Shown here: piece after piece, positions 1 through 18,298 of the stretch
Layout: each line of letters starts with the position of its first letter
Numbering within the stretch: the stretch's first letter is position 1
Origin: a bacterium
Lineage (GTDB): Bacteria > Patescibacteriota > UBA1384 > VFKW01
DNA length: 64,000 nt
NCBI GenBank assembly: GCA_030647355.1
Contig: JAUSIS010000006.1
Span: 169,506 to 233,505 of the forward strand
Direction: 5' to 3'
The notes under the pieces: generated by a model
The model's database searches: none
Seen by the model: only the letters and a program-made list of their open reading frames with translations
Told to the model about the DNA's origin: nothing
Program-made: the position numbers and the translations under genes

Positions 1-457
1 GGATTTAGTAGTAATTGGTTTTGGGTTAATAATTGGTGGGTTAGCTGGCAAATATGTATTTGAAATTATTCTCGGGCACGCTTACTATAAAAAAAATAAA
101 TTGTCCTATAGCGCCACCGACTGGTTTCTTATATTAGTGAGTTTATTAATCAGCTTTATTCTTTTTATTATTATCCCTTTAATGGGTAAAGAGTTAGCGG
201 GAACACAGTATCCAAGTATCGTATATCTACCTTATTTTCCTATTGTTACAGGAATGGTTTATGGCTTTCTAGCTAAAAGTGTTTCGAGAAAAGAAGCGGA
301 TAATTATAAGGCGAGAAATTACATAATTTGGCTTACGCCCGTTTTTGTTAATTTTAATATTTGCTGGAAGAAACGCGAAAGCGGGTGGTTGATATATCTT
401 TCGAGTTGGTTAATAGTACTTGTAGGTTTTTTTCTTTTTTATATCAGTACAATATAG
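1..457 (+). CDS. multi-pass membrane protein, 5'-partial (frame is open back to the window start; the tabulated TTG at 101 is probably internal)
   Basis: Frame 2 has no stop from nt 2 to 457. The translation is strongly hydrophobic with several predicted TM helices. A hairpin plus T-run follows at 521-549. Confidence 0.4.
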   Translation, partial: DLVVIGFGLIIGGLAGKYVFEIILGHAYYKKNKLSYSATDWFLILVSLLISFILFIIIPLMGKELAGTQYPSIVYLPYFPIVTGMVYGFLAKSVSRKEADNYKARNYIIWLTPVFVNFNICWKKRESGWLIYLSSWLIVLVGFFLFYISTI

Positions 458-520
458 ACAAAATATCTGTCCACTCAAGTAGGTGTTCGAAACAAAGTGC
501 ATTCAGCCTACACGGCAAAA

Positions 521-549
521 TAACAGGTTTAGAGACCTGTTATTTTGTT
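521..549 (+). terminator. rho-independent terminator for the membrane-protein gene
   Basis: aacaggt-ttagag-acctgtt hairpin followed by attttgtt. Confidence 0.45.
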
Positions 550-589
550 AGTTGGGACCGGTTATTCCTCTAAAAAACGAATCAATAAA

Positions 590-619
590 TAGAAAAAAGT
601 CAGAGAAAACTCTGACTTA
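590..619 (-). terminator. rho-independent terminator for the radical SAM operon (minus strand)
   Basis: aagtcagag-aaaa-ctctgactt hairpin. On the minus strand it is followed by a T-run (the plus-strand A-run at 593-598). Confidence 0.45.
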
Positions 620-641
620 ATAGAATTCGAATGGCCATTTT

Positions 642-1553
642 CTACATGTAGTAGTTGAACATGTACGCATACTGTAGAAAATGTCCTTTGTGGTTGACGA
701 CAGGATGATTCCAGCATTTCCCTAGGCCATCTCTCAGAATATTACCGACGTTGATGCAGTCGTCTTGAGAGTAACCTTGAGAAATGACATCACCCCGTGA
801 ATCGATAAGGAAACAAGAGTGATGGTTGCCCAATTCGGAATAATCCTGAATAGTTATGAATGGCTCATCGCCCGACATCCTTTTGAGCTCTTGAAGCTGC
901 TTCAGATAAGTCTTCCTTTCCTCATCCGAAAGAAGAAGCTCCGTGTTCCCGTAAGCTTTACCTTGGGGCGCAATCAGGATATAGAACAGCCTGTCTACTC
1001 CCAAAGCTTTTGCTAGCTGGTAGATATAGTCTATCTTATCCAGATTGTCCTTTCTAACCAGGTAATTGATCCGCAATGGAACACCTGCGTCTCGGTATAG
1101 CTTCATTGACTCCACAGCCCTCCTATAGGCACCCTCGCCACGGGACCTGTCGTGAACTTCTTCGTCCCCATCCAAGGAAATCAACAGCAACGTTTTGGTT
1201 TCAAGGATTGTTTGGGCGATCTTTTGATTCCATATAGAGCCATTAGAAGTGACAAGGGTTTCGATGCCTCTGTCGGAAGCGTAGTTTAATATGTCACAGA
1301 TATCTGGACGAAGAAACGGCTCCCCCCCGGTGAAATCGATTCTCACCAGATTAGCCTCAGCCAAAACATCGACGATCGACTTGATGTCGCCCAAGGATAA
1401 TTCAGTAGAATCTTGCTCTCCGCTAAGACAGAAATCGCAATGGTAGTTACACCGTCGCGTAACCTGCCAGCAGAGTGATAACGGATTCGATAGCGTGACT
1501 TTCAGATTAGCCAATCGCTGCTCATGTCCTTCTTTGTACTCGACGATTCTCAT
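642..1553 (-). CDS. radical SAM enzyme with a C-terminal Cys-rich SPASM/twitch-like extension
   Basis: N-terminal CNYHCDFC (CxxxCxxC), a GGEP-like motif (FTGGEPFL), and C-terminal HHSCF...DDCINVG...KCWNH cysteines. A 9-bp gap separates it from the upstream methyltransferase gene. Confidence 0.7.
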   Translation of the reverse strand: MRIVEYKEGHEQRLANLKVTLSNPLSLCWQVTRRCNYHCDFCLSGEQDSTELSLGDIKSIVDVLAEANLVRIDFTGGEPFLRPDICDILNYASDRGIETLVTSNGSIWNQKIAQTILETKTLLLISLDGDEEVHDRSRGEGAYRRAVESMKLYRDAGVPLRINYLVRKDNLDKIDYIYQLAKALGVDRLFYILIAPQGKAYGNTELLLSDEERKTYLKQLQELKRMSGDEPFITIQDYSELGNHHSCFLIDSRGDVISQGYSQDDCINVGNILRDGLGKCWNHPVVNHKGHFLQYAYMFNYYM

Positions 1554-1562
1554 CTCTTATCC

Positions 1563-2270
1563 CTACCCTTTCTGATGCTGCAAAACCGAAGCTGTCATTT
1601 CCAAGACTGACACATTGTGCTGGATGTCTAGCGAAGGCAACTTCACGTTCCACTTGCCTGGAAAAGCGTTGTAGAATACCCCTTTCCTCGGCAATCTGAT
1701 AACAGTACCGACCACTGTCCTCGAAAAGAAGCCTAGGTCTGCATATGTACTCCTCATCCCCTCTGTGAATTCATTGATACCAAGCAGTTCACAAAACTCA
1801 TCGTTGCCGGCGTTTTCGATTGCAAGTATCATCCCGTCTGCTCGTAGGATGTCACCGAGCTTTCGAAAAACAATGTCGAACGAATCTCTCATAGACGTCA
1901 GACTCCACCCAGCGAAGATAAGGTCAACACTGCTGGGTAGTATGATCAAGTCTCTGGCATCTGTGAGCATGAATTCCACATTGTTGGCACCGAGATTCTT
2001 GTCGCGATTGATTTGCATCAAGCTTGTGCTTCTTTCTACGACGTAGAGCTTTGAGCACTCTCTCGATAAGAAAGATGTGAATTTCCCACTTCCAGCGCCG
2101 ACTTCAAGAATCGTTTTGCCCTTGAAATCGTACTGGCTGGATAAATACCCATCAATTATACCGAAAGCGTCCTGGCACCTACTGAATTCCTCGTAGGCAA
2201 CGCCCTGATTATAGTCAAATCGCCACAGGTCCTTGTTCATCTTAGTACCACCTTGTGATTGGTTTATCAA
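1563..2270 (-). CDS. class I SAM-dependent methyltransferase
   Basis: LEVGAGSGKFT glycine-rich motif I. AAGGTGG RBS 7 nt upstream of the ATG at 2270; an alternative start at 2240 is possible. Confidence 0.65.
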   Translation of the reverse strand: MINQSQGGTKMNKDLWRFDYNQGVAYEEFSRCQDAFGIIDGYLSSQYDFKGKTILEVGAGSGKFTSFLSRECSKLYVVERSTSLMQINRDKNLGANNVEFMLTDARDLIILPSSVDLIFAGWSLTSMRDSFDIVFRKLGDILRADGMILAIENAGNDEFCELLGINEFTEGMRSTYADLGFFSRTVVGTVIRLPRKGVFYNAFPGKWNVKLPSLDIQHNVSVLEMTASVLQHQKG

Positions 2271-2540
2271 TGTACCTCTATGTAAAAAGGGGTCAACCTT
2301 TTTAGATTAGCTGAATATTATCATGCATTAGACCAAAAAACAAGCCTTTGCCCGTATATTAAAAGAAATACCAGATAGTATTATTTGCTAGCGGGCCAAA
2401 GGAAGACTACTTGATTTGTTTCTAAATTTATGGTATTATCATGGCAACTAAACGGAGGGTCGCCCTGCGATCTTTTTGTTTGTAGGTTCCTTTACAACAG
2501 ATAGAATGTATCTCACACTAGAAAAGAGGAGGTGGCAACG

Positions 2541-3257
2541 GTGCAGTATGACGATAATGTCCTTGCAATAAGAGCCGCTGTAGCGAGATTTGAAGTTGAA
2601 CAAGGCGTTGATGTCAATGTCTTGTTTACGCAATTACTCCTACAGCATATCACCGACGGGTGCTCGTTGGTTGATATCGGCACTGGAAATGGTTTTGTTT
2701 TATCGCAAGTCTTGCAGCAAAGTGATAAACAGTTTCAACTATTCGGAGTAGATAACTCTCAGAGTATGGCATCTATTGCTCGGAAGAATCTTGTAGGAAA
2801 TGCTACTATCGTCGAAGCTGACGCTAGTGAGCTACCGTTTGATAACTGTAGCTTTGATATCGTATCTGCCAGAAATGTAACACAGATCGATGTTGTCGAG
2901 ATCTACCGTATATTGAAAGAAGGGGGGGTATTTGTCTTTCGTGAATATGGCTGCGGTAAGGGTATGCTGGAGATTGCCGATCTCTTTCGTGGCAGGATCA
3001 TTCGGCAGAGAGATCCTGATTATTATGTAGAAAGATTGCTAGACGCTGGTTTCCATATTGTGAAATTTGACCAATATGAGATCAAGCGTAAATACCGATC
3101 TGCACAAGAACTGGTTTCTATCGTCAAGAGCTACCCATTCGTTGTGGGTTTTTCCAGCCAGGACGAGAAGCTCATCTTAGAGAAGTTCGCCCAAAACGCT
3201 ACGATCACATCTGACCCGTTCATTCTGGTCACTACCAAACCGAAAGGATGTGCGTGA
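2541..3257 (+). CDS. class I SAM-dependent methyltransferase (Methyltransf_11/25-like)
   Basis: VDIGTGNGF motif I. AGGAGG RBS at 2526-2531 favours the GTG at 2541 over the tabulated 2532 start. The stop overlaps the next gene. Confidence 0.6.
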   Translation: MQYDDNVLAIRAAVARFEVEQGVDVNVLFTQLLLQHITDGCSLVDIGTGNGFVLSQVLQQSDKQFQLFGVDNSQSMASIARKNLVGNATIVEADASELPFDNCSFDIVSARNVTQIDVVEIYRILKEGGVFVFREYGCGKGMLEIADLFRGRIIRQRDPDYYVERLLDAGFHIVKFDQYEIKRKYRSAQELVSIVKSYPFVVGFSSQDEKLILEKFAQNATITSDPFILVTTKPKGCA

Positions 3258-3735
3258 AATGAGGAAAGTTGAATTGCTGTTCGATCTCATCAGGTCACCC
3301 TACGATATGGCACACATCGTCCAGATTGCCAAGTCGATCGACTGCATCGTCTATACTTCCGGCAGAAACTCGCTTTCTTTTGATATCCCCAAGGTGATAA
3401 CCAAGGTAAGATCTTGGAACATCAAGGGTGATTTCAAGGCGATTCATTATGAAACGTTTGAAGAAGCGATCCATGATCTGAGGGCAGAAGGTAAATACCT
3501 GGTGGGAACATCAGGTGAAGTCGACAAGCTTTTCTACGACATAGTTCTGCCGGATGGTAAGGATATAGTCGTAGTATTCGGCAACGAAACCTCCGGTCTG
3601 ACTGAAGCGAAGCAACAGATGTTGGACGATATGGTTAAGTTGCCAATGGACAAGTCCAAGGTTGATTTCCTGACCCTACCGGTGGCTGTCTCAGCCATCG
3701 CTTATGAGCTGTATCGACAGTACCACTGTCCGTAG
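3250..3735 (+). CDS. SPOUT-family RNA 2'-O-methyltransferase, TrmL-like
   Basis: C-terminal VVVFGNETSGL ... KLPM ... LTLPVAVSAIAYELYRQ matches the TrmL/SpoU motifs (FGxExxGL, IPM, SLNxSxAxxIxxYE). Protein is ~160 aa. Overlaps the upstream gene by 8 nt. Confidence 0.55.
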   Translation: MREMRKVELLFDLIRSPYDMAHIVQIAKSIDCIVYTSGRNSLSFDIPKVITKVRSWNIKGDFKAIHYETFEEAIHDLRAEGKYLVGTSGEVDKLFYDIVLPDGKDIVVVFGNETSGLTEAKQQMLDDMVKLPMDKSKVDFLTLPVAVSAIAYELYRQYHCP

Positions 3736-3757
3736 AGGAAGAAAGGTGGCGAGCATT

Positions 3758-4831
3758 ATGCTCAAGGATAAGATAGTTTATGTCGTCACCACGGGCGCAA
3801 CTAAGGCGAAAGGTGTTGGCATACTGCTCAGCATGCTAAAGTCAGAGGGTGCACAGTGCATCGTAATGCCAACCGACGCCAGCTATTCGATGCTTGATCT
3901 CGATTCAATCCGGGGCGAATGGGTCAAGTTCAATGGTAATGAATTCGGCGCCCGTCAAGACGAAATACCAGAAGAAGACCTAGTTGTTGTTGCGCCGTGC
4001 ACCTTCAATACGCTTTCCAAGATTGCGACGGGAATAGCTGATAACTATCCATTATCAGTGATCCATGCGGCGATCGGTAGCGGCAAGCCAGTGATTTTGG
4101 CCCTGGCTATGAATTACTGGTATTTCCAGCATCCTATAACTCCTGTAAACATCAACCGCGTAAACGCTTTTGGCAGGGTAAGGGTAATATGGCCTGAGTC
4201 GATCTATTCCGACGATGGTGTCCTCGAGAAAGTGACGATGGCGCCGTGGGAAAAGATTGTTGACACGATCTGCCATACCTACTGCAAGACACGATACAGC
4301 GAGACAAGAAAAGAACAAGAAACATCTGAGATTATCGATGATCACTTTCCAGAGTTCCATAAAACTGGCTCGAAGATGCAGCAAGACCATTTCACGAATG
4401 GTTCCGCTGGATTCATTGCCAAGAGAATTAAGGAAGGTGTACTTGTCACGTCTTCAGGGTCTTGTGTCGGAAATCTGTCAAGATCGGATCTCACGATTAT
4501 TCAGAACTGGTCCAATCAGGTTATAACCTGGTCAGGTGAGGCAAAGCCGTCGTCCGAGACGCCTTTGATATTGGAGATATTCGACAAATTCCCTGATGTC
4601 AAAGTAATCATACACGGACACTGTAGAAGCATCACTTACAGTCCTCTTATGAATAAGTATCACAGCAGTGAGTATCTCAAATACGGCGAATGGAAGGAGT
4701 TATACAAGATCCAGCCCGTTCTTCAGAAGTACAACGGGGGCATCATGAAATTGCATGGCGAGCTGATCCTTGCCAGGGATTTTGATGAAGCCATGGAGAG
4801 GTATCTGGATATGTATCGCCTAACCTGTTAA
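3758..4831 (+). CDS. two-domain fusion: HFCD/CoaC-like flavoprotein (N-terminal) plus class II aldolase/adducin-like domain (C-terminal)
   Basis: N-terminal APCTFNTLSKIATGIADN and ALAMNYWYF correspond to the HFCD PASANTxxKxAxGxxD and PAMNxxMW motifs. C-terminal PSSETPLILEIF...VIIHGHC corresponds to the class II aldolase PSSE...HTH pattern. GGTGG RBS sits before the ATG at 3758. Confidence 0.6.
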   Translation: MLKDKIVYVVTTGATKAKGVGILLSMLKSEGAQCIVMPTDASYSMLDLDSIRGEWVKFNGNEFGARQDEIPEEDLVVVAPCTFNTLSKIATGIADNYPLSVIHAAIGSGKPVILALAMNYWYFQHPITPVNINRVNAFGRVRVIWPESIYSDDGVLEKVTMAPWEKIVDTICHTYCKTRYSETRKEQETSEIIDDHFPEFHKTGSKMQQDHFTNGSAGFIAKRIKEGVLVTSSGSCVGNLSRSDLTIIQNWSNQVITWSGEAKPSSETPLILEIFDKFPDVKVIIHGHCRSITYSPLMNKYHSSEYLKYGEWKELYKIQPVLQKYNGGIMKLHGELILARDFDEAMERYLDMYRLTC

Positions 4832-4838
4832 TCGCAGG

Positions 4839-4874
4839 ACCCTATCAAGATTTATTTCAAGATAGGGTTTTTTA
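4839..4874 (+). terminator. rho-independent terminator
   Basis: accctatc / gatagggt 8-bp stem followed by TTTTTT. Confidence 0.5.
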
Positions 4875-4969
4875 ACCCAAAAAATTTATCATTTTACAGT
4901 ACAACTGGCATAAATTTATTATTTTGGTTATAATAACACTATTAGCCACAAATTTATAAAAGGAAGAAA

Positions 4970-5407
4970 ATGATCAAGAAAAAAATTCTAGCCATAGTTT
5001 ATAGGATAAAAAATCATAATGAACAGTTTCTAGCTTTATTGGAAAATAGCAGCGAAATCGATCAATCGGTCGGATACTACGTAGTTACCGGTGGAGTAGA
5101 AGGAAATGAAGGGTTACTGGATGCAGTGAAAAGAGAAATTATGGAAGAGACCGGAATAGAGAATATTGTTAATATTTTAGATTTGAATAAAATTTATGAA
5201 TACAAGCATCCAGCAGAGGGCGATTATCTCTGCCAGGAGTCTTGTTTTGCCGTGGAGGTTGATGACGAGGTGAAACATTTGAGCGTAGAGCATACAGGAT
5301 ATAAATGGTTACCTAGAAAAGAATTTTCCGATACGATATTTTGGTATACAAATAAAGCAGATTTAGATGAGCTATTAAATAAATTCATTAAGCACATGTC
5401 AAGGTAA
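4970..5407 (+). CDS. NUDIX hydrolase
   Basis: Nudix box GGVEGNEGLLDAVKREIMEETGIE (Gx5Ex7REUxEExGU). AAGGAAG RBS. Confidence 0.65.
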   Translation: MIKKKILAIVYRIKNHNEQFLALLENSSEIDQSVGYYVVTGGVEGNEGLLDAVKREIMEETGIENIVNILDLNKIYEYKHPAEGDYLCQESCFAVEVDDEVKHLSVEHTGYKWLPRKEFSDTIFWYTNKADLDELLNKFIKHMSR

Positions 5408-5601
5408 TAATTTTATTATCTCATACTTAGGGAGATCGATCTAATAACGATATAGTTATATTGATTGTACATATCAATTCCCTCGATATCTCTATCGAAG
5501 GCACTCCTTATTCTCTCCCGGCCCTCACCTCAAATACCTAGGGAATACCTTGGATAGATTTGGGCATTAATTTAGCTGATTATTGATAATAAAATAATGT
5601 A

Positions 5602-5631
5602 ATAGGTTCGAACAAACTCCCCTATGCGCTA
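5602..5631 (+). other. tRNA-Glu 3'-end-like fragment (T-arm/acceptor/CCA); possible att-site remnant
   Basis: GGTTCGAACAAACTCCCCTATGCGCTACCA matches the 3' terminal 26 nt of the intact tRNA-Glu at 10974-11048, apart from a 4-nt insertion. It is in inverted orientation relative to that gene. Confidence 0.45.
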
Positions 5632-5667
5632 CCACATGGTTTTTGATTTGAACCCGCAACCAACCCG

Positions 5668-5728
5668 GTAGACTGAATGAATCTTATTTCGAACACCTTG
5701 TGGATTGGCTGAATCAGCTAATGCTTGC
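5668..5728 (+). repeat. 61-bp direct repeat, copy 1 (flanks the SWIM/Fic island)
   Basis: ggtagactgaatgaatcttatttcgaacaccttgtggattggctgaatcagctaatgcttg. About 87% identical to the copy at 7679-7739 in the same orientation. Confidence 0.6.
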
Positions 5729-5805
5729 GTATGATCAGACGTTGTGTTTCAATCTCAAGAATGTATCTGATTGCTTTTAAAGTAAAAAGGCTCTAAAATG
5801 CAAAT

Positions 5806-6639
5806 ATGTTTTCATATACTAGAATTATTTTAGATAATACTGAATTATCGATCTATCAACGAGGCCTGGAATATGTCAACAAAAAGAAAGTGAAGTTAAC
5901 CTCTATCATAAATAATGGCTGCCAAGCAACTGCGAGTGGTTCACGAAATTATGAGATTACTCTAGGTTTCTCCAGGGTTGGCTCACCAAAATATTCCTGC
6001 TCCTGCCCATATTTTAGTGAACACAAAAAAGTGGTTTGTAAACATATTATTGGCACCTCGCTTGCTTGGGATAGATCGCGGAGTGTCCCTGATCCAGATG
6101 AAGAAACTTTGGAAGTACTTTGCATTCCGGAACCGATATTTTCGCACAAGGATATTAATGAAGCGTATAATAATCCGCTAACAGCTAACCTTGATGTTAT
6201 TCGAATCGCCGCTGATGAAAGCGGCTGGTCTAGGCCTCATGCACATTTACCAATAAAGCCACAAGTTTGTAATCATACAACCCTTGAGTTGACCGATATT
6301 AACAAAGGTATTTCAGAACTTCGTGCCTGGGCTAGAAAATATAACTTTGACCCCTATTTTTGCGCTGGCGAAATAATGGCCGGATTCTGTGAGCTCATAA
6401 GGTTCACTAAGTTTAAATTTGATACTTTAAATTTAGATGATAAAATTAAGGCAACAGTATTACTTGCTAATTTTCATCATGAATTAATCATGGAAAAGAT
6501 TGATGACAGCGAAGGCCTGCACGAATTTTCAGAAACTCATCTTTATGATCTAGTTAGCGAGTTAACTAACAATCAGAAGTTGAATCAGACGCAAATAAAA
6601 GCGCTTGAATTAATTAAACATAAAATTGATGATTATTAG
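5806..6639 (+). CDS. SWIM-type zinc-finger domain protein (hypothetical)
   Basis: CSCPYF...CKHI fits the SWIM CxCxnCxH signature. The rest has no other recognisable domain. Confidence 0.5.
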   Translation: MFSYTRIILDNTELSIYQRGLEYVNKKKVKLTSIINNGCQATASGSRNYEITLGFSRVGSPKYSCSCPYFSEHKKVVCKHIIGTSLAWDRSRSVPDPDEETLEVLCIPEPIFSHKDINEAYNNPLTANLDVIRIAADESGWSRPHAHLPIKPQVCNHTTLELTDINKGISELRAWARKYNFDPYFCAGEIMAGFCELIRFTKFKFDTLNLDDKIKATVLLANFHHELIMEKIDDSEGLHEFSETHLYDLVSELTNNQKLNQTQIKALELIKHKIDDY

Positions 6640-6660
6640 ATATGTTTTAGGTTAAATAAT

Positions 6661-7548
6661 TCAGGTAATTTTATATTCTGCCCTGATTTTCCAGACGCCT
6701 CGCTCGCGAAAAGCAGGAATCGATTGCCTTAGAGCGGCATTAAAAACTGTCGGAGCTCTTAAATTATTTTTTCGTACATAATCAGATAGATTGATTATTT
6801 CCGATCCTTCGAAATATGTGATTCTTTTATTTAACGATTCGGTTAGAGCCAGAGCCATAACTTTTTCCATCAATTTTGAATTTTTATTAAACTGATAAGC
6901 CTTAAATGCTTCATAATAGTCAGCCTTTTCTTTATCTCTGATAATTATACGGGGGAAGCCAAGTTGTAAGAGTTGAAAATTGGTCAGAACTCGACCAATT
7001 CGGCCGTTGCCATCGCAAAAAGGATGAATTCTCTCAAATTCAAGATGAAATTTAGCGATTTTATCAATAAAATAAGCAATGTGATCACTGGAATAATCAA
7101 TCAAAACATTATCAATTAACTGCTCGACTTTTTCGGGTGCCGACGCAACATGGGTGCCTACTCTAACATACTCGCCGATCCTACGAAAACGTCCGGCTAT
7201 ATTATCATCAATTCCGCCCATCAGCATTTGATGAATAAGCAATATTAGTTCTTTTGAGATTTCATCAGTTTGTGCTTTATCCCTTGTATAGTCAACAACC
7301 CTAGCCAAATTCTTAGCTTCATATACTTCGCGAAGGGTAACATCTCGTGAAAGCTCTTGCTCGAGTAGGATTTTTTCTGTCTCTTTAAGAGTCAATGTTG
7401 AGTTTTCAATCGCGTTGGAGTTATAGACACTTTCCGGCACTTCGGCTTGATCAATAATCGTTAAGAGAGCGTCTTTTCCTTGTTTCAAGACATTATATCT
7501 TGTCTTCAATTCACTTAATTTTTCTTGATAAGGTTTTGATAATGACAT
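6661..7548 (-). CDS. Fic/Doc family protein (class II Fic, putative AMPylase) with N-terminal inhibitory motif
   Basis: Canonical HPFCDGNGRIGR Fic motif. N-terminal SNAIEN fits the (S/T)xxxE(G/N) autoinhibitory helix. GGGGG RBS before the ATG at 7548 (tabulated start is 7590). Confidence 0.75.
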   Translation of the reverse strand: MSLSKPYQEKLSELKTRYNVLKQGKDALLTIIDQAEVPESVYNSNAIENSTLTLKETEKILLEQELSRDVTLREVYEAKNLARVVDYTRDKAQTDEISKELILLIHQMLMGGIDDNIAGRFRRIGEYVRVGTHVASAPEKVEQLIDNVLIDYSSDHIAYFIDKIAKFHLEFERIHPFCDGNGRIGRVLTNFQLLQLGFPRIIIRDKEKADYYEAFKAYQFNKNSKLMEKVMALALTESLNKRITYFEGSEIINLSDYVRKNNLRAPTVFNAALRQSIPAFRERGVWKIRAEYKIT

Positions 7549-7678
7549 AGTTGCCCCCAATTTAATGCAATTTAATTGTATACCATTCACGTTATTTTGT
7601 CAATATAGAGTGAATATGCATGTATATTAACATATATTCACGCTATTTTACTCCGCTCAACTCATTCATAGATGATTG

Positions 7679-7739
7679 GTAGACTGAATGCATCTTATTT
7701 CAAACACCTTGCGGATTAGCTGAATCAGTTAACGGTTGT
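7679..7739 (+). repeat. 61-bp direct repeat, copy 2
   Basis: ggtagactgaatgcatcttatttcaaacaccttgcggattagctgaatcagttaacggttg. Confidence 0.6.
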
Positions 7740-7834
7740 TAGTAATTTCACTGACAACTGATAAATTCCATACGATGTAACCATAGTAAATAACGGCTCG
7801 CTGGTTTTGAATTAGAATAGGCCTTAATATTACT

Positions 7835-10534
7835 TTATTTAGTCAGCACTACACTTATCTGGCTCTGGCTGATATTGCCGGCCGCATCATAGGCCTTGGC
7901 GACAATAGTGTAGGTACCGGCCGAGATGCCCTTGCCTCTGGTATTCCAAGTGTAGGAGTAAGGGGAAGTTGTATCGGTGGCTTTAAGAGAGCCGTTGATG
8001 TAAAACTCGACCTTAGCAACACCGACATTATCGGTGGCATTAGCTGTAATATTGACCTTGGTACCCATTTTAATATTAGCGCCACTTAAGGGCAAAGTAA
8101 TGGAGACTGCGGGAGGAGTGGTATCTGGTGTTCCCCCACCACCGCCACTACCGATGGTATAGAAAGCCCAGCCTCTACCCAGACAATTACCACTGCCGGC
8201 AGCAAAAGGTACCGGGCATGTTGTGAGGGTACTGGTAATAAGCGATGCTCTGACCGCAAATGGATAAACTTTTGCCGAAGCAGATAAGGGTGATGTTAAA
8301 TGTAGTATAGTTGAGCTACTTGTTCCTGAAGCCAGCGATGTCAATGTTTCTTGATCGAAGCCAAAAGACCATCCAATACCCATACCTGAACCGTTCTCCC
8401 ACATCAGACTATAACTTTGGTTGGAACAGTAAGAGTTGCTCGCATTCGTGACCGTAACAGTGTAGGAAACTTCAGCTCCCGCATTAACCGCTGTCGACAT
8501 TGTCGGCGTGATATTAACAACCGGGGTTTGATTTATACAATCAGTCGGCGCTCCGCTCCATACCACATAGGCAGCAGTGGATGTTCCAGCAAGAGCGGTG
8601 TTTGCTTGATGAGAAGCTTTGGCGGTGAAAAAGTAAAAACCTTGTGGAGTACTGGCCGGAGAGGTGACGGAGAGCATGGCGGTGCCTGTTGCCCCCGGCG
8701 GTAAAGTTAAATTGGAAACATTAAATTGAGCCGATAAATTAGGATCTGCTGTGTAGCCGAGATCGTAGGTGGCAGGTTCACAGCCAAGCGTGTCGCTATT
8801 CTTAATACCTATGACATAGTACAGAGTTTTTCCTCCAGTAGTAGTCCCTTGATTACCGCCGGCAATTTGCACCTGGGGAGCAAAACGACCACATACTGCG
8901 GTTGGGTCAATCGTAATGTTAACCGTTGCCTCTTGGTCTGTTACCGAGGTAGTAGTGATTTTTACTCCTGATGATGAATCATTGAATATTTGATCGGGTT
9001 TAAGCGCCCATTGAGTCGGCGTTGCCACTGAAGCGCCGGCACGCAAAAGGTCGGTCATGCTGCCATAGGTGATATCCGGAGCAATCCTTATAAATATTCC
9101 TCCCGGATTAGCAAAAGAGTCAAAGCCATAAGTTTTGCGATACTCCAAATAAAAATATTTTTTCACTACATTCGTAGCCGGGTCTATCTCCTTCGGGATT
9201 CTAATCATCTGGATACCACTTGACGCGTATTCTTGCGGGGCAATTTTATAGGTTCCGCTTTGAGTCACTGTTTGATAATTGGTGGAGGTAATCCAGTCTC
9301 TGAAAGTTTTGTAATAATTGTTGTAGTGATAATAACCGCCGCCCATAATATCATACGGATCGCCATACTCACTCCATTTACAATTATCCCCTATGGGAAC
9401 GGGGTTACTGGCAGTATCGGCGCAAATGAAAGAATTGGCGTGATAAAAACCAAGGTTATGTCCCATCTCGTGAGCAATTGTAGGTGAGTTATAGTAGATG
9501 GGAGTGCTGCCAGATCCGGTATAAGTTGAGTACCAACTGCTTCCACGTACCCCACTCCCCAAGGAGCCCCGCGCACTAAAGAGACATTGGGTGGAGATGT
9601 TGCCAAAAACATACTGAACATTGGTGTAGGCGGCCGGATCAAAACCATCCCTCGCGGCCGCCATCTTGTCTCCGGCACTCCCCCAGATTCCCCACCAATT
9701 ATCCGAAAATGAACAATCGTCATTTCTGTATGATATAGTATACCAGCCGTAAATATCCAAATTCGGATCTTTGATTCCGCTCATAATAGTCTTGCCGAAA
9801 GAAGCTTCCTTCCAAAGATTGTTCACCGAATTTGGATTCAGATAATTAATCTGACGAATATAATCATTGGTAACGGTTTGTGTTTGATCATTTTGGAAAT
9901 TAATCAAGATTACCGCTATTTTGCGCATATCTGTAGGGGTAACGGTCGCTGCAACTTCTTGGGAGTCAACTGCGACAATGTCCTCGCTTCTGGCGACAAT
10001 AATATCCTGAATTTTTATTCCACTTAGTTTCACATTTCTGTTAGCCAACGATGTCGGAGCTTCACCGTCAATAAATATTTCCGGCGCTTCCGGTAGCTTT
10101 CCTAGATAGTAATGCGCTTTACCGACTTTTTCTTGGAAATCATCTTCTATAATAACTTGCAAATTACCTTCGCTCCGAAACCGCTCCTCAACGCTAGGCT
10201 TAATTTCAGCCGGCATCTGGTTGTAGAAATTCAACGGTAGCGCTGAGCTCATAAACTCGCCGGGATTTTCTTTTGCTATCATTGTAAATTTATTTTTGCG
10301 TGATTGGGCAATATCTTTAAGTTCTGCCATATCCTCGATTTTCTTACTTTTCTTATATTTAGAGGCAGCACTTAAAAGCCGGTCATTAAGGTTTTTTACC
10401 ACCACTCGTTCTTCCTGAGTTTTCAGGACATCTGCCTTAAAGAAAAGGTTATTCTTCATTAAAACAATAACTAATCCTGCAGCAGATAGAACTAAGACGA
10501 AAATTAGAATTGATAACAAAGTTCTTTTGGGCAT
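7835..10534 (-). CDS. secreted/membrane-anchored metzincin-type zinc metalloprotease with C-terminal Ig-like domain
   Basis: N-terminal TM/signal anchor. HEMGHNLGFYH matches the metzincin HExxHxxGxxH zinc site. A long Thr/Ser/Gly-rich beta-rich region and a C-terminal Ig-like module (VEFYINGSL...YTWN...GTYTI) follow. AAGGAGGG RBS before the ATG at 10534. Confidence 0.6.
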   Translation of the reverse strand: MPKRTLLSILIFVLVLSAAGLVIVLMKNNLFFKADVLKTQEERVVVKNLNDRLLSAASKYKKSKKIEDMAELKDIAQSRKNKFTMIAKENPGEFMSSALPLNFYNQMPAEIKPSVEERFRSEGNLQVIIEDDFQEKVGKAHYYLGKLPEAPEIFIDGEAPTSLANRNVKLSGIKIQDIIVARSEDIVAVDSQEVAATVTPTDMRKIAVILINFQNDQTQTVTNDYIRQINYLNPNSVNNLWKEASFGKTIMSGIKDPNLDIYGWYTISYRNDDCSFSDNWWGIWGSAGDKMAAARDGFDPAAYTNVQYVFGNISTQCLFSARGSLGSGVRGSSWYSTYTGSGSTPIYYNSPTIAHEMGHNLGFYHANSFICADTASNPVPIGDNCKWSEYGDPYDIMGGGYYHYNNYYKTFRDWITSTNYQTVTQSGTYKIAPQEYASSGIQMIRIPKEIDPATNVVKKYFYLEYRKTYGFDSFANPGGIFIRIAPDITYGSMTDLLRAGASVATPTQWALKPDQIFNDSSSGVKITTTSVTDQEATVNITIDPTAVCGRFAPQVQIAGGNQGTTTGGKTLYYVIGIKNSDTLGCEPATYDLGYTADPNLSAQFNVSNLTLPPGATGTAMLSVTSPASTPQGFYFFTAKASHQANTALAGTSTAAYVVWSGAPTDCINQTPVVNITPTMSTAVNAGAEVSYTVTVTNASNSYCSNQSYSLMWENGSGMGIGWSFGFDQETLTSLASGTSSSTILHLTSPLSASAKVYPFAVRASLITSTLTTCPVPFAAGSGNCLGRGWAFYTIGSGGGGGTPDTTPPAVSITLPLSGANIKMGTKVNITANATDNVGVAKVEFYINGSLKATDTTSPYSYTWNTRGKGISAGTYTIVAKAYDAAGNISQSQISVVLTK

Positions 10535-14770: not shown

Positions 14771-15796
14771 TTGTTTGGACAAGAGCTAATTGATGAAATT
14801 CGAAAATCAGGACTAACGGGCAGAAGCGGCTCCGGCTTCAATACAGCCGACAAATGGCACGCCGTCCTTAATGCCAATGCTGAAAAAAAATACGTCATAG
14901 CCAATGGCGCCGAGGGAGAACCGGATACCCACAAAGACTACTACCTTCTCTCGCATTATCCCCAAGAAATTATCAAAGGGATTATTCTGGCTATGCATAC
15001 AGTCGGTGCAATGGAAGGCTTTTTGTATCTGAAAGCAAGTTATTTCGATCGCCTACAAAGCAAACTCAGACACTTGTTAAGGGGGCTTCCCATCAAATTA
15101 GTTGTAGAAAATCCAGGCGGATATCGATGCGGAGAAGAAACAATCGTCATCCAGGTAATCGAGGGCAAGCGTGCTGAACCTCAATTCAAACCGCCTTATC
15201 CAACCCAAAAAGGACTCTGGGGATATCCTACTTTGATAGATAATGTTGAAACCATCTATACCGTGAAATTAATCAACGATGGAAAATATAAAAAAACCCA
15301 TTATTACACAATAAGTGGCCACGTTGAACACCCCGGAACATTTGAAGCACCGGAAAATATTACTGTAGAAAACTTACTCGTTCTCACTGACAATGAGCCG
15401 CAAGAAAAAACTTTTGCCCAAGTTGGCGGAGGTGCCAGCGGTAATATAGTAACCGACAACACTTATTTTTCCTGCAAAATAACTGGAACCGGTTCGGTTT
15501 CTCTCCACCTTCTGGGCGAAGCGCCGGCAAGGTTATTAAAACTCATCAAATTTTACAAAAAAGAATCATGCGGTAAATGTATCCCATGCCGGGAAGGCGC
15601 CTACCGCCTTTATGAATTAATTACAGCACCCAAAATCAACTGGCAGGAAATTGAGGATATTTTAGATACTATGGAAAAAACGAGTTTCTGTGCTCTAGGT
15701 CGTAGCATTGCTTTGCCGGCTCGCGGATTAATTAAATTAGCCGGCGAAGTCAAACAAACTATTACAGAGGAAGAATATGCCAAAAATAACAATTGA
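14771..15796 (+). CDS. NuoF-like NADH-binding Fe-S flavoprotein (hydrogenase beta / HndC-like)
   Basis: GRSGSGFNTADKW (GRGGAGFPTGxKW), ANGAEGEPDTHKD (CNADEGEPGTFKD) and ESCGKCIPCREG (4Fe-4S motif). Confidence 0.7.
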   Translation: MFGQELIDEIRKSGLTGRSGSGFNTADKWHAVLNANAEKKYVIANGAEGEPDTHKDYYLLSHYPQEIIKGIILAMHTVGAMEGFLYLKASYFDRLQSKLRHLLRGLPIKLVVENPGGYRCGEETIVIQVIEGKRAEPQFKPPYPTQKGLWGYPTLIDNVETIYTVKLINDGKYKKTHYYTISGHVEHPGTFEAPENITVENLLVLTDNEPQEKTFAQVGGGASGNIVTDNTYFSCKITGTGSVSLHLLGEAPARLLKLIKFYKKESCGKCIPCREGAYRLYELITAPKINWQEIEDILDTMEKTSFCALGRSIALPARGLIKLAGEVKQTITEEEYAKNNN

Positions 15797-17501
15797 GATA
15801 AATGGAAAGAAAATTGAAACCAACGAAGGCAAGACAGTTTTTCAAATTGCCAAGGAAAACGGTATCTATATACCTTCTTTATGTTATCATCCCGACTTGC
15901 CGGCAGGATCATCCTGTCGCCTTTGTCTTGCTCAGGTAGATGGCTCTCCGAGACCAACAACGTCATGCAACCTTACTGCTAAAGATGGCATGAAAATCAA
16001 AACCAATACCCCTGAAATTAAAAAGCTTCGCGCCAAAAACTTGGAATTTATTTTTGGAGAACACGTAATTAATTGTGGTGACTGCTTAAAAAGCTTTGAC
16101 TGCACTATCCTCCAGCTTGCCAAAGAATTTGGTATTGATATCTATCATTATAAGCATCGCAAATCGCAACCGCGACACTATACATATGGTCATGTCATCG
16201 AATTTGAAGGCAATAAATGTATCGAATGCAACAATTGTGTCGAAGCCTGCAAAAATCAATCAATTGGCTGCCTGAAAACGGCGGACTTCAATCAGGAAAC
16301 TCACATAATTCCTAGCACCGAGTCGCCGTGCATCTCCTGTGGTCAATGCATTGTTCACTGTCCAGTTGGTGCTATTCATTCAAAAAATAATGTAAAGGAA
16401 GTCGAGCGTGAATTGAGTTTAAAGCGCAAGAAAATTGTCTTTCAATTCGCCCCGTCTGTTCGAGTTTCTATTGGTGAAGAATTCGATCTACCCCCTGGAA
16501 AGATAATGACCGGACAAATCATCACCGGTCTCAAAAAACTCGGAGCGGATTGGGTGGTTGATGTTGATCTCGGTGCCGATCTGACAACCTACGCAGAGGC
16601 TCTGGAACTTGTGGAGAGATTCTCTGAAAAGAAAAACCTACCCATGATGACAACATGCTGTCCTTCCTGGGTTCTTTACGTCGAAACGCATCACCCCGAG
16701 TTTATTCCAAATCTCACATCGGTTCGTTCCCCTAATATGATCGCCGGCGGTATCTTAAGGCAAATCTTTGCCAAAAAAGTGTCAATCCAGTGCAAAGATT
16801 TATATACTGTCTCGGTCATGCCATGCACTGCCAAAAAACACGAAATCAACCGTCAGGAAATGTGGCATAATGGTGTTAAACCGGTTGACGCGGTGCTCAC
16901 AACCAGAGAGCTGGCATACCTATTCAAAAAGCGAGGTATCAACCTCGCTTTGCTCCCTTCCGCAAAACCGGATAGCCCATTAGGTGTGGAAACAGGATCG
17001 GGAACTATCTATGGCTCGTCGGGTGGAGTCATGGAAGCAGCCTTGCGCACGGGTTACTATTTCATCACCGGTAAAAACTTAAAAAATGTCGAAATTAAAG
17101 ACGCCCGAGGCATGAAAGGATTAAAAGAAGTGGAAGTTCAAATCGGTAAGCAAACTCTCCGCACAGCCGTGGTTAATGGGATGGAAAATATTGAGGAACT
17201 ACTAGTTCGACTCAAAGAAGATCCTAACCGCTACCACTATATAGAAATAATGGCTTGTCCGGGCGGCTGTATAGGTGGCGGAGGTCAGCCGATCAGCACT
17301 GACGAAAATATTAGGCAAAAAAGACAGAATGCTATTTATGAAATAGATAAGAAATCTACAATACGATTAGCCCACGAAAATCCTGTAGTGAAAAACCTCA
17401 TGGACAATGAACTGAAAACCAAATCAGCCCGCAAGCGCTTGCTAGAGACTAAATACCAGAAATCCGCAGGTCCAGGCATTATTCAAAAAATTATAAATTA
17501 A
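15777..17501 (+). CDS. hydA: [FeFe]-hydrogenase catalytic subunit
   Basis: H-cluster motifs TSCCPSW (L1), MPCTAKKHE (L2) and MACPGGCIGGGGQP (L3). N-terminal 2Fe-2S and two 4Fe-4S ferredoxin-like Cys clusters. Confidence 0.8.
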   Translation: MPKITIEINGKKIETNEGKTVFQIAKENGIYIPSLCYHPDLPAGSSCRLCLAQVDGSPRPTTSCNLTAKDGMKIKTNTPEIKKLRAKNLEFIFGEHVINCGDCLKSFDCTILQLAKEFGIDIYHYKHRKSQPRHYTYGHVIEFEGNKCIECNNCVEACKNQSIGCLKTADFNQETHIIPSTESPCISCGQCIVHCPVGAIHSKNNVKEVERELSLKRKKIVFQFAPSVRVSIGEEFDLPPGKIMTGQIITGLKKLGADWVVDVDLGADLTTYAEALELVERFSEKKNLPMMTTCCPSWVLYVETHHPEFIPNLTSVRSPNMIAGGILRQIFAKKVSIQCKDLYTVSVMPCTAKKHEINRQEMWHNGVKPVDAVLTTRELAYLFKKRGINLALLPSAKPDSPLGVETGSGTIYGSSGGVMEAALRTGYYFITGKNLKNVEIKDARGMKGLKEVEVQIGKQTLRTAVVNGMENIEELLVRLKEDPNRYHYIEIMACPGGCIGGGGQPISTDENIRQKRQNAIYEIDKKSTIRLAHENPVVKNLMDNELKTKSARKRLLETKYQKSAGPGIIQKIIN

Positions 17502-17518
17502 TATCGAAAGGAGAATAA

Positions 17519-17638
17519 TGGAATCTGTCATAGCACGCACAAAAGTCCAAGCTCGTTCAACCTCAACCCGGTTAGCGCTGGGAATATTATTCTTAGCGAT
17601 TTCTATTCTAACTGGCACTAAACAGCTCAAGAAATAGA
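17519..17638 (+). CDS. small (39 aa) single-TM membrane peptide (hypothetical)
   Basis: Strong AAGGAG RBS 6 nt before the ATG. MESVIARTKVQARSTSTRLALGILFLAISILTGTKQLKK. Below the 60-aa cutoff of the ORF track. Confidence 0.35.
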
Positions 17639-17852
17639 ACCTTGCAAAATCACGCAAATTAAAGCATATTATATTAAGAACCTGTACAAAATCTATTCTA
17701 GGAGCGAATCAGAGGATATTTTAGCCGAAAAATGCAAATCTTGAAGAAGGGATAGCCATAGCTATCTTAATGAGTGATTTACATTTTGCAGGCAAAATAA
17801 GCATGGTGCAGCTGCCAGATATAGATCTTGGACAGGTTCTAAGGGAGGACAA

Positions 17853-18290: not shown

Positions 18291-18298
18291 GGAGTGGA

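Follow-up and report, generated by a model that had tools for sequence, protein, structure and literature searches.

The window, that is the whole stretch of 64,000 nucleotides analysed here, carries a gene coding for a single polypeptide in which an HFCD-fold flavoprotein domain is followed by a short class II aldolase-fold domain (Table 1). The gene is the last of an operon formed by a class-I methyltransferase (MT_A), a SPOUT methyltransferase and the fusion itself. The surrounding ORF (nt 3704–4831) is uninterrupted in frame, and the ATG at nt 3758 is the start codon, in agreement with the MLxGK N-termini of the homologues; the NCBI gene call (MDO8513272.1, 357 aa) has the identical length, and a Shine-Dalgarno-like stretch, GGAAGAAAGGTGG, is found upstream of this ATG. 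The initial annotation had described the gene as translationally coupled to the upstream SPOUT gene. The two indeed belong to the same operon, but no overlap occurs here, the SPOUT stop codon (nt 3733–3735) being followed by a 22-nt spacer; an overlap of 4 nt between the two genes is present in homologous loci such as L005. Downstream of the fusion, the predicted hairpin with its U run would terminate the transcription unit of MT_A, SPOUT and fusion, and the NUDIX gene that follows has promoter-like sites (nt 4893–4934) and a GC content below that of the core.

Table 1. Genes, domains and motifs of the fusion locus (positions in the window; A1, alignment of the fusion sequences).
Feature	Position (nt)	Strand	Remarks
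Radical SAM enzyme	642..1553	-	303 aa, viperin/MftC-like size; PF04055, 76.5 bits; accessory of operon variant 1
MT_D, class-I SAM methyltransferase	1563..2240	-	Pfam; divergent arm, cluster of operon variant 1; start 2240 from the NCBI call
MT_A, class-I SAM methyltransferase (UbiE-like fold)	2532..3257	+	Pfam Methyltransf_25/11; first gene of the core trio
Divergent minimal SPOUT (SpoU/TrmL-like)	3250..3735	+	PF00588, 45.5 bits; likely start ATG 3259
Fusion gene	3758..4831	+	357 aa + stop; HFCD-fold flavoprotein domain + short class II aldolase-fold domain
N-terminal flavoprotein (HFCD/UbiX/DpaB-fold) domain	3758..4282	+	aa 1–175
PCTFNT motif	3995..4012	+	aa 80–85; equivalent to the flavin-binding APxxANT of HFCD proteins (alignment to 1qzu, EpiD)
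Structured linker	4283..4354	+	aa 176–199; strand 181–184 and start of helix 190–209
C-terminal short class II aldolase/adducin-fold domain	4355..4828	+	aa 200–357
PSSE	4547..4558	+	aa 264–267; putative phosphate-binding Ser pair and catalytic/metal-ligand Glu
H286-G-H288	4613..4621	+	two of three putative metal-binding His, both invariant (A1)
H333-G334-E335	4754..4762	+	third putative metal-binding His and family-specific invariant Glu (A1)
Intrinsic-terminator-like hairpin and U run	4836..4873	+	-15.2 kcal/mol, z -5.2, 0/200 shuffles as stable
NUDIX hydrolase	4970..5407	+	PF00293; own transcription unit here

The fusion, proposed from the DNA sequence in the first place, proved to be genuine. 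Each half passes its own family HMM well above threshold, namely Pfam Flavoprotein (PF02441, residues 7–172) and Aldolase_II (PF00596, residues 202–348). A frameshift or an assembly artefact joining two genes is excluded because both domains are present, with the same architecture and length, in 85 independent full-length homologue clusters at 90% identity (about 28 at 50% identity) from many samples and sources. The unbroken reading frame and the linker also speak against this explanation, to which we attach practically no likelihood. Indeed, the linker shows secondary structure throughout (pLDDT 91–98), is conserved in the fusion alignment, and the same N-terminal extension is carried by standalone relatives of the C-terminal module. 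The AF2 model of the whole protein is that of a rigid, confident two-domain protein (pLDDT 94.7, pTM 0.90), with the two halves predicted to pack rigidly against each other.

The window genome is not the sole carrier of this architecture, since the search in other genomes retrieved it widely: full-length copies were found in 25 GTDB species of about 185,000, belonging to Patescibacteria (CPR), DPANN archaea and some gut "Clostridia" MAGs. No relative was detected among the 2.9 million viral contigs of IMG/VR, and a viral origin is thus rejected. Invariance of residues was called from the alignment A1 of 34 fusion sequences, operon counts refer to 33 fusion loci, and the metagenome scan was built on a 6-sequence alignment. 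Full-text literature searches yielded nothing on a flavoprotein and class II aldolase fusion or on its operon, in line with the initial suggestion that the architecture is undescribed. In databases the fusion is named "flavoprotein", and this and the other automatic names met here, "3-polyprenyl-4-hydroxybenzoate decarboxylase" and "TrmH family RNA methyltransferase", either say little or mislead.

The N-terminal half had been labelled as a CoaC/HFCD flavin decarboxylase domain on account of its motifs, one of which was interpreted as the substrate clamp. The motifs PCTFNT and LAMNYWYF are present, but the clamp label was misplaced: APCTFNTLSKIATGIADN aligns instead to the APxxANT flavin-binding motif (APLDANTLGKVASGICDN in 1qzu), and the actual clamp region of HFCD proteins aligns to PESIYSDDGVLEKVTMAP in the window protein. 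P80, C81, T82 and N84 are invariant in the fusion family. HFCD flavoproteins bind FMN and form trimer-based oligomers, and from A14 and the PCTFNT motif we infer FMN binding by this half as well. On the contrary, conservation is lacking for the residues that define the cysteine decarboxylases. The catalytic His (EpiD H67, AtHAL3a H90, the His of "VLHIDL" in human PPCDC) aligns to a Gln in the window protein, in a column that is variable and gapped in the family profile; the Asn of the PxMNxxMW region, where the window protein reads LAMNYWYF, may be N, G or D in the family, with drift to AMG, AMD, SYD and SVN; the clamp Cys (AtHAL3a C175) aligns to a Tyr, and six residues of the clamp are deleted in many members. 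In addition, the Ser of the HFCD "TGS" loop is an invariant Ala. All CoaC/CoaBC equivalog models score far below cut-off (TIGR00521, 54 vs 219.7; TIGR02113, 44.6 vs 261.4). As judged by sequence, the N half keeps the HFCD fold and the flavin-binding motifs and has lost the His and Cys of the cysteine decarboxylases, their Asn being variable, so that the CoaC label is not supported and the fusion is almost certainly not a phosphopantothenoylcysteine decarboxylase.

A true CoaC of coenzyme A synthesis, provided with an accessory domain, is accordingly a most improbable explanation, as no CoaB gene is found at the fusion loci and methyltransferases are the partner genes. One archaeal ORF, P0143, joins CoaC, CoaB and Aldolase_II and would fit it; nevertheless it is known from one contig only, and its aldolase domain (68 bits, vs 95–140 bits for the unfused relatives) is more distant than that of the unfused relatives, thus indicating an independent fusion. 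For the same reasons P0143 was discarded as an ancestor of the fusion. The fold is shared with CoaC/PPCDC (1qzu, AtHAL3a), with the N domain of Dfp/CoaBC (6tgv) and with EpiD, MrsD and TvaF, from which the fusion differs by the missing catalytic His and, as to the CoaBC type, by having an aldolase domain in place of CoaB. DpaB and UbiX, non-decarboxylases of the same fold, gave HMM scores (33 and 20 bits, respectively) lower than that of CoaC, and neither a DpaA nor a UbiD partner occurs at the fusion loci.

In the C-terminal half, the previously noticed PSSE...HxH pattern was confirmed. The Glu and three His of the metal site (E267, H286, H288 and H333) are invariant in the 34 sequences, their equivalents being invariant in the unfused relatives, and the C half would therefore be expected to bind a metal; P264, S266 and E267 are likewise invariant both in A1 and in the alignment of the unfused relatives (A3). 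The family has invariant residues of its own, i.e., HxHC, T293, Y306 and E335. Among the FucA phosphate-binding residues, which we take to be N29, T43, G44, S71 and S72, the S-G and S-S pairs are kept, whereas the fusion family has F or C in place of N29; in the unfused C-domain relatives this residue is N ("GNLS"). In a by-eye comparison, 45 residues separate the HxH from the third His vs 60 in FucA, and the FucA Tyr113 loop is thus probably missing, this segment being shorter by about 15 residues. By the same comparison the protein ends about 22 residues past H333 and the C-terminal tail (FucA Tyr209') is missing. On these sequence grounds the C half represents a class II aldolase domain in shortened form, with most of the putative phosphate-binding residues kept, having fold and metal site in common with FucA (1fua/4c25), the short archaeal FucA-like enzymes, MtnB and the DHAP-shunt aldolases Ald2/DrdA. 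The equivalog scores for MtnB, FucA and Ru1P-aldolase are all far below cut-off (MtnB TIGR03328, a partial match of 38.2 vs 137 bits), and both chemistry and substrate of the C half may differ from those of known aldolases.

As to the gene neighbourhood, the SPOUT gene lies directly upstream of the fusion in 32 of the 33 loci and MT_A is present in 28. Three gene-order variants were distinguished, which track the fusion-protein tree, and the accessory genes vary, comprising a radical SAM enzyme, a TrxR-like flavoprotein, a LOG-like protein, the NUDIX hydrolase, a kinase and an NMNAT-like protein. The radical SAM gene is restricted to operon variant 1, where it is 70–79% identical across loci and co-occurs with MT_D. 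Variant 2 has an APH-fold kinase, the APH fold being the fold family of MTR kinase, and variant 3 a TrxR-like reductase without CxxC, with a canonical SpoU gene added in some loci. The NUDIX family is found in 18/33 loci in varying position. The LOG-like protein belongs to SLOG cluster 4, which was reportedly defined by Burroughs and co-workers in 2015, and shows the GxGTxxE motif. Overall, the SAM users of the operon amount to 2–4 methyltransferases plus the radical SAM gene.

The SPOUT protein is the most conserved gene product of the cluster, being 67–81% identical where the fusion is 47–61%. It keeps SpoU motifs 2 and 3, and its motif 1 (N..G..R), home of the catalytic Arg in TrmH-type enzymes, is replaced by SPYD.AH..Q. 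All SPOUT equivalog scores are below cut-off, and the C-terminal half resembles TrmL and RlmB. To our knowledge, RNA is the substrate of every SpoU/TrmH-type SPOUT enzyme characterised so far. A hypermodification of tRNA or rRNA, in which the SPOUT and class-I methyltransferases act on a nucleoside and the fusion contributes a redox or C-C step at the altered base or ribose, might be considered. Such a function would explain the resemblance to TrmL and RlmB, the high conservation, as expected for a conserved RNA target, and the additional canonical SpoU of some variant 3 loci; moreover, tRNA or rRNA genes adjoin some loci, and pairings of flavoenzymes with methyltransferases, such as MnmC and TrmFO, are known in RNA modification. 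We regard it as rather unlikely, since motif 1 is lost, no RNA-binding extension domains are present and the pI of the core proteins lies in the acidic to neutral range (median 5.0–6.6, vs 8.75 for the canonical second SpoU, pI being weak evidence). Furthermore, the NUDIX, LOG-like, kinase and NMNAT-like accessories suit nucleotides better than polymers, the patchy occurrence in so few species is unusual for a translation-related function, and we know of no RNA-modifying enzyme with an HFCD or class II aldolase fold. A riboswitch or other RNA leader was also considered and rejected: Rfam searches returned none in positions 1–8000 of the window at E<=1, apart from one chance match to SCARNA7, and only tRNA and rRNA genes in eight homologous loci.

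The radical SAM enzyme and the N domain bring in two further possibilities. The best PDB profile matches of the N domain are EpiD (71 bits) and TvaF, the top NCBIfam matches of the radical SAM enzyme are MftC, StsB and PqqE (MftC at 121 vs a cut-off of 265), and the methyltransferase MT_C matches a daptide methyltransferase over near full length. These matches would agree with maturation of a RiPP or peptide-derived cofactor, the HFCD half acting LanD-like on a C-terminal Cys and the radical SAM enzyme and methyltransferases tailoring the peptide; more distant relatives, P0147 and P0154, even adjoin a conserved 66–70 aa ORF and a radical SAM gene. Yet among the small ORFs (18–110 aa) around the 33 fusion loci none is conserved between lineages, conserved protease or transporter genes are absent, the position of EpiD His67 is not conserved and the aldolase half retains a site of the sugar-phosphate type, all of which renders peptide maturation very improbable. 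Hardly better placed is a nucleotide-analogue or anti-phage conflict system, in which a viperin-like radical SAM enzyme and the methyltransferases would yield a modified, chain-terminating nucleotide, with NUDIX and SLOG proteins as regulators or immunity factors. Mouse viperin (5vsl, 59 bits) is the best PDB match of the radical SAM enzyme, which also hits PADLOC pVip models at 92 bits, and SLOG and NUDIX proteins are typical of nucleotide-centric conflict systems. On the other hand, the NCBIfam viperin model gives 81.9 vs a cut-off of 180, the radical SAM gene occurs in one variant of three, and the lack of any viral relative in IMG/VR also weighs against it. PADLOC retrieved no match for the fusion, SPOUT, TrxR-like and SLOG proteins, its remaining matches being generic methyltransferase and viperin-like ones. 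Fic, OLD nuclease, SUa-2TM and IS240 genes were observed near some loci, a further point in favour of a conflict system.

The neighbourhoods of the closest unfused relatives of each half are those of nucleoside or ribose-phosphate salvage, although the sample is not unbiased, because the loci were chosen by sequence patterns. Unfused N-domain relatives with the PCTFNT motif (Chloroflexota) adjoin IU nucleoside hydrolase, PfkB kinases, SIS, ADP-ribosylglycohydrolase, PRAI-like and PRTase genes. Unfused C-domain relatives lie beside an IF-2B/MtnA-type isomerase in 6 of the 14 closest loci and in 19/35 of the next tier, with SAH hydrolase, PNP_UDP_1 and aldehyde dehydrogenase as recurring neighbours; IF-2B-aldolase (L134, L140) and PNP_UDP_1-aldolase (P0233) fusions exist as well. 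Proteins of about 800 aa with a receiver domain and others of about 320 aa, both with the same aldolase module, were dismissed as a functional clue, their contexts being different and the motif partly PSSS and not PSSE. In CoaBC (CoaC and CoaB), in the MtnB fusions (plant DEP1, Tetrahymena MtnBD) and in the IF-2B-aldolase proteins, two consecutive steps on a phosphorylated small molecule are joined, as would be the case for our fusion, which differs from them in its partner domains.

On this basis, and as a tentative preference held with a little less than half of our confidence, we propose that the fusion, encoded by the last gene of a horizontally spread operon, is a bifunctional enzyme of a SAM-dependent tailoring pathway with a phosphorylated small molecule of ribose origin as substrate. 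The substrate bound by the C domain would be ketose-like and phosphorylated, with ribose, a nucleoside or SAM as its source, and a divalent metal together with Glu267 would generate an enediolate, from which aldol cleavage or condensation, dehydration or epimerisation could follow. The N domain would carry out an FMN-dependent two-electron redox step on a neighbouring intermediate or product, the FMN being possibly recharged in operon variant 3 by the TrxR-like reductase that lacks CxxC. The methyltransferases and SPOUT would methylate the same small molecule, while the NUDIX, LOG-like, kinase and NMNAT-like accessories may feed in or trim a nucleotide-type precursor. In favour of this proposal, the ribose/nucleoside theme was reached independently for each half and the accessory genes are of nucleotide type, and the acidic-to-neutral core and the SPOUT without N..G..R argue for a small molecule over RNA. 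Against it, the FucA Asn29, Tyr113 loop and C-terminal tail are not kept, and the high SPOUT conservation also fits a macromolecular substrate. IF-2B isomerase, PNP, SAH hydrolase, aldehyde dehydrogenase and DeoC genes were not found in the 64-kb window nor, save for a weak PNP-like ORF in L009, within 8 kb of the 33 fusion loci; a simple salvage scheme is thus not encoded in cis.

In a specific version of the bifunctional-enzyme proposal, SAM by-products (5'-deoxyadenosine, MTA or SAH) would be disposed of or re-used in a manner akin to the DHAP shunt; the C domain would act on a 5-substituted ribulose-1-phosphate by cleavage or dehydration and the flavoprotein domain would oxidise or reduce the aldehyde product, like the aldehyde dehydrogenase of the unfused operons. 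The neighbours and fusion partners of the best-matching unfused C-domain relatives point in this direction, together with the abundance of SAM users, the variant 2 kinase (through its fold) and the partial MtnB match. We nonetheless consider it a minor candidate with a low probability, given that the IF-2B isomerase, unlike at loci of the unfused relatives, is present in 0/33 fusion loci, that the by-product of methyltransferases is SAH and not MTA or 5'-deoxyadenosine, and that the radical SAM gene is confined to one variant; the low MtnB, FucA and Ru1P-aldolase scores are a further difficulty, and MT_A and SPOUT as obligate partners are left unexplained.

The genomes of CPR and DPANN organisms are tiny and leave little room for superfluous biosynthesis, and an operon of 3–9 genes that is kept and passed between the two domains of life is thus likely to matter for their host-dependent lifestyle. 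Its possible roles include salvage of host nucleotides or SAM by-products and production of a methylated metabolite or cofactor. The fusion illustrates that the HFCD fold can shed its cysteine-decarboxylase residues and become joined to a sugar-phosphate enzyme. As a bolder and doubtful extension of the proposal, an undescribed SAM-dependent pathway, exchanged among CPR, DPANN and small-genome Firmicutes, would have MT_A, SPOUT and the fusion as its core and yield a methylated small molecule whose parent compound is ribose, a nucleoside or possibly a flavin/NAD-type cofactor, with SPOUT as the first small-molecule SpoU-type knotted methyltransferase and with metal-enediolate and flavin redox chemistry combined in one particle. 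A SPOUT partner acting on a small molecule, if true, would widen the known scope of this enzyme class. Since trimers are the usual form of one half and tetramers that of the other, the fusion might assemble into a cage of 12 or 24 subunits.

The fusion of a flavoprotein domain with a class II aldolase-fold domain is encoded by one uninterrupted open reading frame. Its start at ATG 3758 agrees with the MLxGK N-termini of the homologues and with the NCBI gene call (MDO8513272.1, 357 aa, named 'MAG: flavoprotein [bacterium]'), lies 22 nt past the stop of the SPOUT gene and has a purine-rich, Shine-Dalgarno-like stretch ahead of it. Both halves exceeded the cut-offs of their family HMMs in Pfam, with PF02441 (Flavoprotein) on residues 7–172 (61.4 bits, cut-off 22.7) and PF00596 (Aldolase_II) on residues 202–348 (52.9 bits, cut-off 22.2), confirming the two-domain architecture described in the initial annotation. 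The structure prediction it had called for was confident throughout: the AlphaFold2 model, built from an alignment of 34 family members, had a mean pLDDT of 94.7, no segment below 70 and a pTM of 0.90, so that confidence extends to how the two halves are placed relative to each other.

A clustered-protein search covering 5.8 billion proteins retrieved 85 clusters (90% identity) of full-length homologues, 31–100% identical and 341–392 aa long (one 281-aa match is a fragment), and both Pfam domains were present in all 85; the next matches were ordinary CoaBC proteins (E ≥ 2e-6). When 1.84 billion representatives at 50% identity were searched exhaustively with a profile, only 52 proteins were found at E ≤ 1e-30, about 28 being full-length fusions. 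GTDB contigs, with one genome per species, contained the full-length fusion in 25 species. Carriers were Patescibacteria (Saccharibacteria, Nanosyncoccus, Moraniibacteriota and Paceibacterota), DPANN archaea (Pacearchaeota, Nanoarchaeota) and gut or digester 'Clostridia' MAGs, while no viral relative was found among 2.9 million viral contigs. The fusion is a real, conserved two-domain protein; a frameshift or assembly artefact joining two genes was rejected on the 85 full-length clusters, all carrying both domains, and its probability is negligible. Source databases name the homologues 'flavoprotein', 'hypothetical protein' or '3-polyprenyl-4-hydroxybenzoate decarboxylase' (JGI), and a full-text literature search found no account of a flavoprotein plus class II aldolase architecture. 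The protein joins known superfamilies in a new combination, inside an undescribed operon.

Positions of the features in the window and in the compared loci (L numbers)
Feature	Locus	Position	Strand
Radical SAM gene	window	642–1553	−
MT_D, methyltransferase	window	1563–2240	−
MT_A, class-I methyltransferase	window	2532–3257	+
SPOUT gene	window	3250–3735	+
Fusion, open reading frame	window	3704–4831	+
Fusion, coding sequence	window	3758–4831	+
Hairpin with U-run closing the core transcription unit (−15.2 kcal/mol, z −5.2)	window	4836–4873	
NUDIX hydrolase gene	window	4970–5407	+
Fic-domain gene	window	6661–7590	−
NuoF-like subunit and [FeFe] hydrogenase	window	14771–17501	
Ribulose-phosphate 3-epimerase	window	18299–18949	
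Split transketolase	window	18946–20720	
Fic ORF, same family	L004	12044–12979	
TrxR-like flavoprotein	L005	6614–7543	
P0143, CoaC + CoaB (DFP) + Aldolase_II	L073	6757–8580	
Degenerate N half + short aldolase	L074	175–3888 (protein with its neighbour genes)	
P0160/P0165/P0233 group, receiver domain + aldolase module	L075	7001–9403	
Degenerate N half + short aldolase	L077	1980–5420 (protein with its neighbour genes)	

The N half had been taken for a CoaC/flavin decarboxylase, an identity that did not survive comparison with the known enzymes. Aligned pairwise with human PPCDC, the protein has Gln opposite the catalytic His ('VLHIDL') and Tyr opposite the clamp Cys, and the NCBIfam models for CoaC, CoaBC, DpaB, UbiX and AfpA all remained far under their cut-offs (best 54 against 219.7). 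The 18-residue string read as the substrate clamp is actually an APxxANT-type motif. Across the family, the region ahead of the conserved PEED...PCTFNT block is variable, gapped and without a conserved His, the position facing EpiD His67 in the profile-to-EpiD alignment is weakly conserved, the Asn position of PxMN holds N, G or D, and six clamp residues are missing in many members. Invariant are A14, in the N-terminal loop, and P80-C81-T82-x-N84, the putative counterparts of the HFCD flavin-binding elements. The flavin motifs are intact; of the Cys-decarboxylase residues, the catalytic His and the clamp Cys are lost and the PxMN Asn is not conserved across the family. By fold the N half groups with CoaC and the other HFCD Cys decarboxylases, from which it differs in defining catalytic residues. 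A true CoaC, which would share this fold, is highly improbable. We infer that the N half would still bind flavin, with a chemistry other than Cys decarboxylation; DpaB and UbiX carry out non-Cys-decarboxylating chemistry in the same flavoprotein fold.

In the C half, P264, S266, E267, H286, H288, H333, G334 and E335 are invariant in the family. The Glu of PSSE and the three His presumably hold the divalent metal, as they do in class II aldolases such as FucA, and the S/T-G phosphate loop is retained; the domain looks catalytically competent, with its putative metal site intact. It differs from FucA in having Phe or Cys at the Asn29 equivalent, a segment about 15 residues shorter between HxH and the third His, and no C-terminal tail. 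NCBIfam matches to OtnC, MtnB, methanogen FucA and archaeal short aldolases were partial and under cut-off (25–43 bits); the domain belongs to the superfamily of FucA and MtnB by fold but to neither equivalog.

Genomic context was compared across 33 fusion loci, comprising the window, exact-protein look-up loci and GTDB loci, whose ORFs were called and clustered. A SPOUT protein of about 158 aa lies directly upstream of the fusion in 32 of these loci, the approximately 238-aa MT_A occurs in 28/33 and a NUDIX hydrolase in 18/33; both a divergent SPOUT and a class-I methyltransferase are obligate partner genes of the fusion. Three operon variants were distinguished. The window and other CPR loci carry the radical SAM and MT_D genes on the opposite strand, followed by MT_A-SPOUT-fusion; gut Clostridia have MT_B, NUDIX and sometimes an APH-fold kinase before the same three genes; and the third variant, hosted by DPANN, one Saccharimonadales and another Clostridia lineage, reads MT_A, TrxR-like, SPOUT, fusion, SLOG (cluster 4), MT_C and NUDIX, with or without NMNAT-like and canonical SpoU genes. 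The neighbour-joining tree of the fusion protein, whose deep branches belong to the third variant, tracks operon variants rather than taxonomy, a pattern consistent with the cassette having been transferred horizontally as a unit.

The SPOUT gene is the most conserved of the cassette (67–81% identity where the fusion has 47–61%). The 131 homologues detected all consist of this single domain and come from the lineages in which the fusion occurs. SpoU motifs 2 and 3, forming the SAM-binding knot, are kept, and motif 1 has changed from N..G..R to SPYD.AH..Q; the core proteins have median pI values of 5.0–6.6 against 8.75 for the canonical second SpoU. RNA hypermodification, a reading under which the SPOUT protein would retain an RNA substrate, is considered unlikely. 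The 303-aa, viperin-sized radical SAM protein had mouse viperin as its best PDB match (59 bits) and scored 92 bits to PADLOC pVip, but it stays below the cut-offs of the viperin and MftC models of NCBIfam. An anti-phage system based on a nucleotide analogue is quite improbable, and peptide maturation marginally more so. Its gene is 70–79% identical among CPR loci and mutually exclusive with the TrxR-like gene, found at L005 and nine other loci. The latter's product matched Thermoplasma TrxR (3cty) with 174 bits but is without CxxC and hence no disulfide reductase, being more probably a reductase of the flavin or ferredoxin type. The SLOG-like protein exceeded the PF18306 cut-off (29.9 against 26.3) and keeps the LOG-like GxGTxxE motif, and the DPANN extra gene was closest to archaeal NMN adenylyltransferase (65 bits, under cut-off).

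Unfused relatives were informative for both halves. Those closest to the N half are Chloroflexota proteins of about 170–200 aa with the PCTFNT motif (118–139 bits against about 100 for CoaBC). Many of them (L033–L072) adjoin genes for inosine-uridine nucleoside hydrolase, PfkB kinases, SIS-domain proteins, ADP-ribosylglycohydrolase, PRAI-like isomerase or phosphoribosyltransferase; two PfkB kinases and two SIS proteins are often present. These genes resemble a cluster for the catabolism of ribosyl compounds, so far uncharacterised. Closest to the C half are archaeal class II aldolases of about 190 aa (95–140 bits), directly followed by an IF-2B/MtnA-type isomerase gene in an Altiarchaeales genome and, in Methanosarcinales, placed after or fused to a DeoC-type aldolase. 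When 80 metagenome loci were ranked by C-domain profile score, the best-scoring tier (14 informative loci at ≥85 bits) had IF-2B neighbours in 6/14, SAH hydrolase in four and a phosphomutase-like gene in two; of the 35 loci in the 60–85-bit tier, 19 had IF-2B, 17 aldehyde dehydrogenase and 13 PNP_UDP_1 phosphorylase. Together, IF-2B, aldehyde dehydrogenase and PNP_UDP_1 correspond to the genes of the DHAP shunt, the known route for 5'-methylthio- and 5'-deoxyadenosine. IF-2B/MtnA-type isomerase–aldolase fusions (L134, L140; 578-aa ORFs), short class II aldolases fused to DeoC-type class I aldolases (L095, L096; 422-aa ORFs) and P0233, with its C-terminal PNP_UDP_1 domain, were also found. Each half, independently of the other, therefore points to sugar-phosphate metabolism of ribose, nucleosides or SAM by-products, in loci retrieved by sequence pattern rather than sampled at random. 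A specific SAM-by-product shunt is as unlikely as RNA hypermodification: IF-2B, SAH hydrolase and aldehyde dehydrogenase genes occurred in 0/33 fusion loci, a weak PNP-like ORF in 1/33, and none of the four gene types across the 64-kb window.

We tentatively propose a more general mechanism, combining ketose-phosphate enediolate chemistry, flavin redox, methyl tailoring and processing of a nucleotide-type precursor; in this general form it falls slightly short of an even chance. The C domain would bind a phosphorylated ketose-type substrate derived from ribose and form an enediolate stabilised by the metal, from which cleavage or condensation, dehydration, or epimerisation would follow. The adjacent two-electron redox step would fall to the flavin domain, in the role that the separate aldehyde dehydrogenase has in unfused operons, while the methyltransferases and SPOUT may tailor the same small molecule, and NUDIX, LOG-like, kinase and NMNAT-like proteins would process the nucleotide-type precursor. 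With its function so inferred, the fusion offers a testable entry point to how ultra-small symbionts run their accessory metabolism, and possibly to SPOUT chemistry on small molecules.

Other aldolase-containing architectures were observed. The 607-aa P0143 (archaeal MAG GCA_042570655.1) is regarded as an independent, unconfirmed fusion since its aldolase domain (68 bits) stands further off than the unfused relatives (95–140 bits) and it occurs on one contig only; it could be a gene-call or assembly fusion. In P0160, P0165 and P0233 (about 800–1115 aa), a receiver domain at the N-terminus and a long uncharacterised region accompany the same aldolase module, with PSSS in place of PSSE; L075 neighbours include PEP-utilising enzyme genes and a cytosine/purine permease. 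The L074 and L077 proteins (about 305–330 aa), in which a degenerate N half is joined to the same short aldolase module, lie near a large radical SAM gene (about 550–560 aa), an SDR-like gene and a conserved 66–70-aa ORF with 'N.DWD.V..E', which may be a peptide-linked system.

The window NUDIX gene, located after the hairpin, has its own promoter-like sites and lower GC. Within 4500–7600, GC content drops from the 44–48% of the core cassette (642–4831) to 36–38% over the NUDIX, SWIM and Fic genes, which suggests a mosaic region. The Fic-domain gene lies just outside the cassette, and the same ORF family flanks it in a distantly related Clostridia lineage (L004, L023), with OLD-family nuclease and SUa-2TM genes coming next in L004; these loci may represent a variable or defence-island setting. 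Further downstream, the genes at 14771–20720 fit a fermentative CPR-type genome.
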